This document shows, in pieces, positions 18,151 to 64,000 of a stretch of 64,000 nt of DNA. The notes beneath the pieces are model-generated. The model saw nothing but the letters and a program-made list of their open reading frames with translations, was not told the DNA's origin and did not search any database. The stretch lies in NCBI RefSeq assembly GCF_016026235.1, contig NZ_CP065613.1. One strand, 5' to 3'. The position numbers and the translations under genes were made by a program. Source of the DNA: Escherichia coli (GTDB lineage: Bacteria; Pseudomonadota; Gammaproteobacteria; Enterobacterales; Enterobacteriaceae). The stretch's first letter is position 1. Each line of letters opens with the position of its first letter.

Positions 18151-18343
18151 CTTGCTGGTTTGTGAGTGAAAGTCACCTGCCTTGATATCTCAAAACTCAT
18201 CTTCGGGTGATGTTTGAGATATTTGCTCTTTAAAAATCTGGATCAAGCTGAAAATTGAAACACTGAACAACGAGAGTTGTTCGTGAGTCTCTCAAATTTT
18301 CGCAACACGATGATGAATCGCAAGAAACATCTTCGGGTTGTGA

Positions 18344-21243
<2,900 letters not shown>

Positions 21244-21335
21244 ACAACGCCGAAGATGTTTTGGCGGATGAGAGAAGATTTTCAGCCTGATACAGATTAA
21301 ATCAGAACGCAGAAGCGGTCTGATAAAACAGAATT

Positions 21336-21455
21336 TGCCTGGCGGCCTTAGCGCGGTGGTCCCACCTGACCCCATGCCGAACTCAGAAGTGAAACGCCGT
21401 AGCGCCGATGGTAGTGTGGGGTCTCCCCATGCGAGAGTAGGGAACTGCCAGGCAT
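21336..21455 (+). rRNA. rrfE: 5S ribosomal RNA
   Basis: TGCCTGGCGGCCTTAGCGCGGTGGTCCCACCTGACCCCATGCC...GGGAACTGCCAGGCAT, 120 nt. Confidence 0.97.
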
Positions 21456-21467
21456 CAAATTAAGCAG

Positions 21468-21495
21468 AAGGCCATCCTGACGGATGGCCTTTTTG
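21468..21495 (+). terminator. rrn operon T1 rho-independent terminator
   Basis: Hairpin AAGGCCATCCtgaCGGATGGCCTT followed by TTTT. Confidence 0.85.
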
Positions 21496-21514
21496 CATTG
21501 GCGCAGAAAAAAAT

Positions 21515-26488: not shown

Positions 26489-30379
<3,891 letters not shown>

Positions 30380-30695
30380 TTAAATATCTCATTGTTTATT
30401 GATGTCTTAAATTTTAACTATCAGAACAGTGAAAAAATTTAATATGATTACAACTAAAGAAATATCATAAATCGCTCAATCTCATAATGCAGCCGTAAAA
30501 GTTTCGGTGGAATGAGATCTTGCGATTTTGTTAATAATTAAGTGGTTTGATGTTTAAAAATAATGCTGAGTTAATAAAAGTGTGTGAAGTGTATGACATT
30601 AAGTTATTTTGGCGTCAATGCGATTAACAGACACCCTTATTCTATTGCCACTCAGGTATGATGGGCAGAATATTGCCTCTGCCCGCCAGAAAAAG

Positions 30696-57532: not shown

Positions 57533-59077
57533 TTAATCAAACTTCATTCGCGTGGCTTTCAGGTTCACTATCGCCAGCGCACCCACCAGCAGGAAGATCA
57601 GCGTGGCAATTGCTGCAGCCAGACCGAAGTCCTGACCCCCGCCGCCTTCAAAAGCGATACGGTAGGTGTAGTTAACAAGCAGGTCGGTATAACCGGCTGG
57701 CGTGGTCGTGCCAAGACGATCCGGGCCGCCGTTGGTTAACAGCTGAATCAGCACGAAGTTGTTAAAGTTAAAGGCGAAGCTGGCGATCATCAGCGGCGTC
57801 AGCGGTTTAATCAGCAGCGGCAGCGTAATCTTAAAGAAGTTCTGGAACGGACCTGCGCCATCCATTGCTGAGGCTTCATACAAATCGTCCGGAATCGCTT
57901 TCAGCAAGCCCATGCAGAGGATCATCATGTACGGATAACCCAGCCAGGTATTGACGATAATTAGCATCGTGCGGGCGGTGGTCGGATCGCTGAACCAGGC
58001 GGGCTTCACGCCAAACAGCGCGCTCAACATCATGTTGATTTCACCGAAGCTCTGGTTAAACAACCCTTTGAAAATCAAGATTGAAATGAATGATGGCACC
58101 GCGTAGGGCAGAATCAGCAGAACGCGATAGACCGCTTTGCCGCGCAATGCTTCCCACTGCACCAGACATGCCAGAACCATGCCGACCGCCACCGTTAAAA
58201 AGACAGTGATCAGCGAGAACACCACGGTCCAGACGAAAATGGCGAGGAACGGTTTCTGAATGCCTTCGTCGGTAAAGACGCGGGTAAAGTTTTTCCAGCC
58301 GGTGGTCACGGTGTAACCGGGGCTTAGCTTTTCATCACCCCAGTTGCCGTCGGCGGTAATGGACTGGTAAAAGCCAATTTGGTTATTCGGACGATATTTC
58401 ACGCCGCTCTGATTATTCGTCAACGTGCCGTCACCGTCGAGTGTGTAGAGCGGCTGCGTGCCAGAAAACTGGCGCAGGGAGCTCATCATCACTTTGTTGC
58501 CATCCGGCAGAATGGCGGTAATGTCACTCAGCGCCTGACGATTCTGGGTAATCACGCGTAGATTTGCGCGTTCGCCTTCGGGCTGGGCGGTCGTTTCTTT
58601 CAGTTGCAGTTTTTGCTCGCCGCCAAATTTAAAAGCGTTGGAGAGGTAATTTTTGCCGGTTTCGCCGTCGCTGAGGGCTAGTTGCCACTCATCGCCCGCC
58701 GGGTAAAGACCAAAATTATAGGTTTTGCCTGCTTGCCAGGAGCGATCTAGCAACACTTCCTGCGCACGTTCAAAAGTCAGCTGGTTAGTGCTGCTGTAGT
58801 TGGTGAAGGCAATGGCGATGGTGCAGACCAGAGGGAAGAGGACGAATAATCCCATTCCAGCCATTCCCGGGTAAACATAGCGCCAGGCGTAGGCTTTACG
58901 ATTGGCGAAAATATACAGCCCCGCTGAACTCAATATCAGCGTGGTAATGGCGAACAGGTATTCCCCTTGTGCGTACATTAAAACAACAAGGTAACCCACC
59001 AGCAGGCCGAGCAGACCTAACACTGACCATTTCAGCGCGTCGCTTTGCCACCAATGTTTCTTTTTAATGACATCCAT
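57533..59077 (-). CDS. malF: maltose ABC transporter permease MalF (514 aa)
   Basis: [40 protein letters not shown]...; ATG 59077. Confidence 0.95.
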
Positions 59078-59230: not shown

Positions 59231-60424
<1,194 letters not shown>

Positions 60425-60785: not shown

Positions 60786-61901
60786 ATGGCGAGCGTACAG
60801 CTGCAAAATGTAACGAAAGCCTGGGGCGAGGTCGTGGTATCGAAAGATATCAATCTCGATATCCATGAAGGTGAATTCGTGGTGTTTGTCGGACCGTCTG
60901 GCTGCGGTAAATCGACTTTACTGCGCATGATTGCCGGGCTTGAGACGATCACCAGCGGCGACTTGTTCATCGGTGAGAAACGGATGAATGACACTCCGCC
61001 AGCAGAACGCGGCGTTGGTATGGTGTTTCAGTCTTACGCGCTCTATCCCCACCTGTCAGTAGCAGAAAACATGTCATTTGGCCTGAAACTGGCTGGCGCA
61101 AAAAAAGAGGTGATTAACCAACGCGTCAACCAGGTGGCGGAAGTGCTGCAACTGGCGCATTTGCTGGATCGCAAACCGAAAGCGCTCTCCGGTGGTCAGC
61201 GTCAGCGCGTGGCGATTGGCCGTACGCTGGTGGCCGAGCCAAGCGTATTTTTGCTCGATGAACCGCTCTCCAACCTCGATGCTGCACTGCGTGTGCAAAT
61301 GCGTATCGAAATCTCCCGTCTGCATAAACGCCTGGGCCGCACAATGATTTACGTCACCCACGATCAGGTCGAAGCGATGACGCTGGCCGACAAAATCGTG
61401 GTACTGGACGCCGGTCGCGTGGCGCAGGTTGGGAAACCGCTGGAGCTGTACCACTATCCGGCAGACCGTTTTGTCGCCGGATTTATCGGTTCGCCAAAGA
61501 TGAACTTCCTGCCGGTAAAAGTGACCGCCACCGCAATCGATCAAGTGCAGGTGGAGCTGCCGATGCCAAATCGTCAGCAAGTCTGGCTGCCAGTTGAAAG
61601 CCGTGATGTCCAGGTTGGAGCCAATATGTCGCTGGGTATTCGCCCGGAACATCTACTGCCGAGTGATATCGCTGACGTCATCCTTGAGGGTGAAGTTCAG
61701 GTCGTCGAGCAACTCGGCAACGAAACCCAAATCCATATCCAGATCCCTTCCATTCGTCAAAACCTGGTGTACCGCCAGAACGACGTGGTGTTGGTAGAAG
61801 AAGGTGCCACATTCGCTATCGGCCTGCCGCCAGAGCGTTGCCATCTGTTCCGTGAGGATGGCACTGCATGTCGTCGACTGCATCAGGAGCCGGGCGTTTA
61901 A
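60786..61901 (+). CDS. malK: maltose ABC transporter ATPase MalK (371 aa)
   Basis: [51 protein letters not shown]... Walker A/B and LSGGQ. Confidence 0.95.
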
Positions 61902-61942
61902 GCACCCTACAAAACACACAAAGCCTGTCACAGGTGATGTGA

Positions 61943-63313
<1,371 letters not shown>

Positions 63314-63324
63314 TAGCAAAACCT

Positions 63325-63356
63325 GGGCCGGATAAGGTGCTTGCGCCGCATCCGGC
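63325..63356. repeat. REP element after lamB
   Basis: GGGCCGGATAAGGTGCTTGCGCCGCATCCGGC. Confidence 0.85.
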
Positions 63357-63401
63357 ATAAAACAGGTTGTCATTATCTGAAAGGGGCGAAAGCCCCTCTG
63401 A

Positions 63402-64000
63402 TTATCGGGTTTAGCGCGCTATTGCCTGGCTACCGCGCCTGGAATCAGTCTTGCCGATGTTAACTACGTACCGCAAAACACCAGCGACGCGCCAGCCATT
63501 CCATCTGCTGCGCTGCAACAACTCACCTGGACACCGGTCGATCAATCTAAAACCCAGACCACCCAACTGGCGACCGGCGGCCAACAACTGAACGTTCCCG
63601 GCATCAGTGGTCCGGTTGCTGCGTACAGCGTCCCGGCAAACATTGGCGAACTGACCCTGACGCTGACCAGCGAAGTGAACAAACAAACCAGCGTTTTTGC
63701 GCCGAACGTGCTGATTCTTGATCAGAACATGATCCCATCAGCCTTCTTCCCCAGCAGTTATTTCACCTACCAGGAACCAGGCGTGATGAGTGCAGATCGG
63801 CTGGAAGGCGTTATGCGCCTGACACCGGCGTTGGGGCAGCAAAAACTTTATGTTCTGGTCTTTACCACGGAAAAAGATCTCCAGCAGACGACCCAACTGC
63901 TCGACCCGGCTAAAGCCTATGCCAAGGGCGTCGGTAACTCGATCCCGGATATCCCCGATCCGGTTGCTCGTCATACCACCGATGGCTTACTGAAACTGAA
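63402..64000 (+). CDS. malM: maltose-operon periplasmic protein MalM, partial at the window end and lacking a recognisable start codon and signal peptide
   Basis: Frame from 63402 reads LSGLARYCLATAPGISLADVNYVPQNTSDAPAIPSAALQQLTWTPVDQSKTQ...; in-frame TGA at 63399; no ATG/GTG/TTG before the mature sequence. Confidence 0.8.

Follow-up and report, generated by a model that had tools for sequence, protein, structure and literature searches.

In the 64,000-nucleotide stretch of Escherichia coli DNA analysed here (the window), malM is very probably a 5′-truncated pseudogene, created when 86 bp were lost in one spontaneous deletion between two imperfect direct repeats of 11 bp. The deletion is a real clonal, lineage-specific allele, and it is ordinary gene decay of a known operon, involving no new genetic element.

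The window is ordinary E. coli chromosome, comprising the thi operon, an rRNA operon, ace, the sorbose genes, pgi and malB. The window and every related locus share the gene order malK, lamB, malM, with malM directly downstream of lamB; malK, lamB, malF and malG are all intact in the window. The features of the lamB–malM region are as follows.

61973–63313, plus strand: lamB (maltoporin), an intact open reading frame of 446 aa, exactly the LamB protein of FDAARGOS_943, with Pfam domain PF02264.
63327–63356, plus strand: single REP palindrome in the lamB–malM spacer, native by alignment and forming a stem in the RNA fold.
63382–63397, plus strand: GAAA-loop hairpin AGGGGC-GAAA-GCCCCT (RNA fold), native spacer, identical in K-12 and FDAARGOS_943.
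63399–63401, plus strand: TGA, in the malM frame after the deletion, closing that frame upstream.
63426–63436, plus strand: retained left copy of the imperfect direct repeat, CTGGCTACCGC, placed by alignment, overlapping BLAST segments and reconstruction.
63426–63428, plus strand: CTG (Leu codon), the NCBI start of malM, identified from the 290-aa call in identical assemblies, translation and a Shine–Dalgarno scan.
63435–63455, plus strand: APGISLA, remnant of the signal-peptide c-region (wild-type residues 20–26), from translations.
63456–64000, plus strand: mature MalM coding sequence, undamaged and continuing past the window end.

The lamB stop codon (TAA, 63311–63313) is followed directly by TAG. 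The GAAA hairpin has no T-tract on its 3′ side, and a scan for promoters and terminators across 63200–63700 found no promoter and did not call the hairpin an intrinsic terminator; the deletion junction thus creates neither a new promoter nor a new terminator. An Rfam scan of 61800–64000 in E-value mode returned only a match to naRNA4, a REP-derived family, at 63326–63403 and below threshold (33.2 bits against a gathering score of 59.5), so that no RNA family explains the lamB–malM spacer.

The REP content of this spacer is polymorphic. One REP is present in this lineage and in many other E. coli, and K-12-like genomes carry 91 extra bases with two further REP copies at window position 63357–63358. 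In genomes encoding an identical LamB (loci L004 and L023), little differs from the window upstream of the spacer (two differences in 4.4 kb for L004), and malM of the same genomes, aligned with window 63358–64000 over 579 positions, has 12 mismatches and one gap. This pattern suggests recombination, with a breakpoint within or close to the lamB–malM spacer.

When bases 63200–63620 of the window (421 bases) were searched against 5,426 complete E. coli genomes, almost all matched. Among the matches listed, each was in two or three pieces, and the subject span was approximately 495–507 or 586–598 bases, against 421 in the query. The missing bases were located by a three-way alignment of the window, FDAARGOS_943 (the best match and nearest genome) and a K-12 strain, in which the flanks are identical and a single clean gap of 86 bp separates them. 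Between the lamB stop and 63436 no base differs from the wild-type spacer of FDAARGOS_943, and this stretch also aligns to K-12, save for the 91 extra REP bases of the latter. The spacer on the 5′ side of the junction, with its REP and hairpin and ending in CTATTGCCTGGCTAC, is identical in FDAARGOS_943 and K-12. From 63434 on, the window is normal malM, and its malM remnant is identical to the malM of FDAARGOS_943.

Explicit reconstruction gives the missing 86 bases as CGCTGAGCTCCAGATTTTGAGGTGAAAACA ATGAAAATGAATAAAAGTCTCATCGCCCTCTGTTTATCAGCAGGGTTACTGGCAAG. They consist of 30 nt of leader, including the Shine–Dalgarno sequence GAGGTG, and the first 56 coding nt, namely codons 1–18, the ATG included, and two bases of codon 19; wild-type relatives have the Shine–Dalgarno sequence, the ATG and MKMNKSLIALCLSAGLLAS precisely at the site of the window's missing bases. 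After the retained repeat CTGGCTACCGC, the wild type continues for 86 further bases that end in a second repeat copy, CTGGCAAGCGC. The two copies are 11 bp long, identical at 9 of 11 positions and 86 bp apart, and the junction falls within the last three bases of the left copy, in the shared CGC (63434–63436). The alignment, together with a script, identified this flanking repeat; a repeat search of the wild-type spacer with a 6-nt seed did not report it because its longest exact run is 5 nt. From the repeat geometry, the bases would have been lost by replication slippage or by microhomology-mediated illegitimate recombination, with the crossover in the shared CGC. An intact malM of 306 aa is present in FDAARGOS_943 and in GCA_901482675.2, where the flanks are more than 99.9% identical.

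The maltose regulon of the window carries a second defect, as originally predicted, in the neighboring importer gene malE (59231–60421).

60419–60421, minus strand: malE start codon, changed from ATG to ATA, linked to the malM deletion in every case.

Every assembly with the malM junction has the ATA allele, assemblies lacking the junction never do, and the allele is found in none of the 5,426 complete E. coli genomes; the malM deletion is fixed in the clone that carries this ATA. The next in-frame malE ATG would give a product beginning MMFSASALA, without most of the signal peptide, while NCBI annotates a full 396-aa MalE from the ATA. A further change in MalE, E348K (window position 59380, codon 348), is derived with respect to both FDAARGOS_943 and K-12, and was rejected as a third lesion. 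The same change occurs with an ATG start and an intact malM in an unrelated lineage (loci L020 and L021; 99.0% identity); it is therefore probably neutral, and probably represents either a recurrent neutral polymorphism or a variant acquired by recombination.

Over the full 64 kb the window is approximately 99.93% identical to FDAARGOS_943, the next best genomes reaching 98.4%, and the 20 kb upstream of the junction differ from FDAARGOS_943 by 11 substitutions and one 1-bp indel (99.94% identity). With the rRNA genes excluded, just two indels separate the two sequences in 64 kb, and both are in mal genes. Within the rRNA operon (approximately 18300–21500), substitutions and four single-base indels with respect to FDAARGOS_943 cluster in the 23S/5S region; it is likely that differences among the rRNA operon copies, or assembly noise, account for these, and that no real divergence is involved.

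FDAARGOS_943 and GCA_901482675.2 share the exact LamB of the window and an insertion of the IS110 family downstream of malM. Both of these sister genomes have malM and malE intact, and each has a malF lesion of its own. In FDAARGOS_943, malF carries a −1 frameshift in an A5 run at codon 156 (L003:15412, corresponding to window position 58610), and the gene is labeled ‘frameshifted’ in RefSeq. In GCA_901482675.2, a 24-bp in-frame deletion between GCCGCTG repeats removes malF codons 422–429 (LIKPLTPL), just past the EAA loop (window 57791–57814), and the same gene has D406G within the EAA loop (window 57861). Elsewhere in FDAARGOS_943, the type III effector gene espL4 (L017:12900–15085, corresponding to window positions of approximately 28200–30400) carries an annotated frameshift and internal stop, and the IS110-family element ISSso6 disrupts a SopA-family gene located downstream of malM. 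The espL4 and SopA-family disruptions are signs of some gene decay in the lineage.

The malE and malF lesions bear on an alternative to neutral decay, in which the malM deletion is part of a selected inactivation of the maltose system that might lower LamB exposure to phages or save the cost of expression. This concerns the persistence of the allele and does not compete with the deletion mechanism. The strict linkage of the malM deletion to malE start-codon loss, the independent malF lesions of the two sister genomes and the location in mal genes of both 64-kb indels outside the rRNA genes all speak for it. However, the pattern was noticed post hoc, in a sample of three sub-lineages; the FDAARGOS_943 malF frameshift affects a homopolymer, where it could reflect a sequencing error; and culture-collection strains, which accumulate mutations in storage, are the source of at least some of these genomes. 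In addition, no role of malM in transport or regulation is known (PMC11745164), so that its loss adds nothing obvious to the malE defect. Selection on the malM deletion is thus judged unlikely. That the several independent hits to the maltose importer in one clone complex reflect repeated selection for loss of maltose uptake is judged more doubtful still; possible reasons for such a loss would include low expression of the MalT regulon and of LamB, and any contribution of MalM loss to the resulting phenotype is speculation. The parallel malF lesions of the sisters hint modestly that maltose uptake can be dispensed with in this lineage, or is selected against, whether through relaxed or positive selection.

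Under the preferred reading of malM as a 5′-truncated pseudogene, the question becomes what the remnant might still produce. Downstream of the TGA at 63399–63401 the malM frame reads LSGLARYCLATAPGISLADVNYVPQ, and from this stop to the conserved MalM residues it reads LSGLARYCLATAPGISLADVNY. From the TGA onward this frame has no ATG, GTG or TTG until a GTG at 63675, codon 83 of the remnant, which is its first canonical start; the first ATG follows at 63729. A convincing Shine–Dalgarno sequence is found at none of the downstream candidate starts. An ORF of 40 aa in the +2 frame (63341–63463), opening with a TTG inside the REP, was weighed as an alternative start for malM and discarded: its frame differs from that of malM, and its portion 5′ of the junction, including the start within the REP, is ordinary wild-type spacer.

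These observations uphold the original prediction that malM has no start codon between the in-frame TGA and the conserved MalM sequence. The suggestion that the start might only have been mis-framed in a common allele fails, as FDAARGOS_943 and K-12 have the Shine–Dalgarno sequence and the ATG, and the window lacks those 86 bp. The predicted loss of the signal peptide is correct for its N-terminal part only: residues 1–19 (MKMNKSLIALCLSAGLLAS), and with them the n- and h-regions, are gone, and the C-terminal APGISLA survives. Nor does mature MalM begin at 63426, as had been proposed. That position is the CTG leucine codon, ATAPGISLA begins at 63429, and APGISLA belongs to the end of the signal peptide; mature MalM presumably starts at DVNY (63456), with cleavage after SLA, as in the UniProt annotation.

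The malK–lamB–malM transcript would still be made, with lamB and its 3′ REP and hairpin untouched. It would offer no ribosome start site for malM, so little or no protein is expected, and as malM is last in the operon, no polar effect should arise. Trace initiation at the CTG would yield an (M)ATAPGISLA-DVNY product with neither the charged n-region nor the hydrophobic core. Such a product should not reach the periplasm, the normal site of MalM. The function of MalM is still unknown (PMC11745164), and a sequence search of the PDB with wild-type MalM returned no solved relative.

NCBI nevertheless annotates an intact 290-aa MalM from the CTG at 63426, and if that call were right malM would still be functional. 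The product is named ‘maltose operon protein MalM’, and its sequence, read from an identical assembly, scores 505.6 bits against NCBIfam NF007855 (cut-off 295) over profile positions 17–303 of 303, leaving positions 1–16 unmatched; PF07148 is also recorded on it. This score accounts for the remnant still being named MalM. The downstream frame is intact with no further damage, and weak expression of a cytoplasmic fragment is conceivable. However, the CTG has no Shine–Dalgarno sequence in range (the best candidate upstream matches AGGAGG at 3 of 6 positions), the GAGGTG of the wild type having been deleted, and AUA and CUG initiate at 1–2% of AUG even with a good ribosome-binding site (bioRxiv 10.1101/063800). 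By the general n/h/c architecture of signal peptides, (M)ATAPGISLA, with no basic residues and no hydrophobic core, is not expected to support Sec export. A working 290-aa protein is highly improbable, and given the lack of both a Shine–Dalgarno sequence and an export signal, the NCBI call is probably an over-call.

A 43-nt probe for the malM junction, each of whose 28-mers spans the junction, matched 0 of the 5,426 complete E. coli genomes; with a control 43-mer taken from malM close by, 5,401 of them matched. An exact search with a junction 30-mer found none in GTDB representative genomes and none in JGI metagenome contigs. Carriers of the allele were found solely through exact-protein look-ups, with the LamB of the window and with the 290-aa product as queries. 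Among contigs encoding this LamB, two have a 290-aa malM call starting 113 nt after lamB, and a malM call at this distance is present at five loci (L005, L013, L014, L015 and L016). The 290-aa product is UniParc entry UPI00068E7568, listed by NCBI as ‘maltose operon protein MalM [Escherichia coli]’ on approximately 25 contigs. At least five separate assemblies at NCBI share the junction to the base, on contigs of 44 kb to 4.6 Mb. Four of these (GCA_900449985.1, GCA_021506135.1, GCA_008180225.1 and GCA_001907395.1) are identical to the window over 9.8–10.5 kb, and the fifth, GCA_031665325.1, has one SNP with respect to the window, at 61338, and hence is not the same data set.

An assembly artefact is ruled out by this recurrence in separate deposits and by the location of the junction, which lies in unique sequence approximately 80 bp 3′ of the REP. 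A sequencing error or a collapse at the REP, the latter raised with the original prediction, could be argued from the tendency of REP regions to assemble badly and from the absence of the junction in complete RefSeq E. coli genomes, GTDB representatives and JGI metagenome contigs, but with an 11-bp imperfect repeat alone flanking the junction such an error is scarcely credible. Next to no probability attaches to the originally predicted replacement or rearrangement of the malM 5′ end by a REP- or hairpin-bearing segment: read alone, the window does run from the malM frame into unrelated-looking sequence and a stop beside a hairpin, and both the REP and the hairpin are indeed present, but both are native wild-type spacer, the stretch from the lamB stop to 63436 aligns to that spacer with only bases missing and no foreign sequence, and the 86-bp deletion is the sole change. 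The REP and the hairpin are bystanders untouched by the deletion.

The value of these results lies mainly in annotation and housekeeping. Public records hold a 290-aa MalM from a CTG and a 396-aa MalE from an ATA, and, to judge from their sequences, both annotated products are probably non-functional or strongly hypomorphic. With malM and malE both probably defective, the clone may be maltose-negative or weak, which could matter in biochemical typing. A natural malM-null clone with close malM-positive relatives also provides a ready comparison for studies of MalM function (PMC11745164).

The closest known system is wild-type E. coli malM itself (NF007855, PF07148), the last gene of malK–lamB–malM. 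The window has the same locus, neighbors and spacer, and differs in lacking the Shine–Dalgarno sequence, the ATG and signal-peptide residues 1–19. Deletions between short direct repeats, through microhomology or slippage, are a classic class of spontaneous deletion in E. coli. The endpoints of the malM deletion likewise lie in short repeats (9 of 11 positions identical, with 3 bp exact at the crossover), of which one copy is kept, and the 24-bp malF deletion of GCA_901482675.2, between GCCGCTG repeats, has the same geometry. Laboratory signal-sequence deletions in malE and lamB are in-frame changes that leave the start codon in place; the precursor is therefore made and stays in the cytoplasm. 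Like these export-defective mutants, the malM lesion removes the hydrophobic core of the Sec signal from an envelope protein of the mal regulon. In contrast to them, the malM allele has also lost its initiation region, with little or no protein expected, and it is a natural allele, carried by surveillance and culture-collection genomes.
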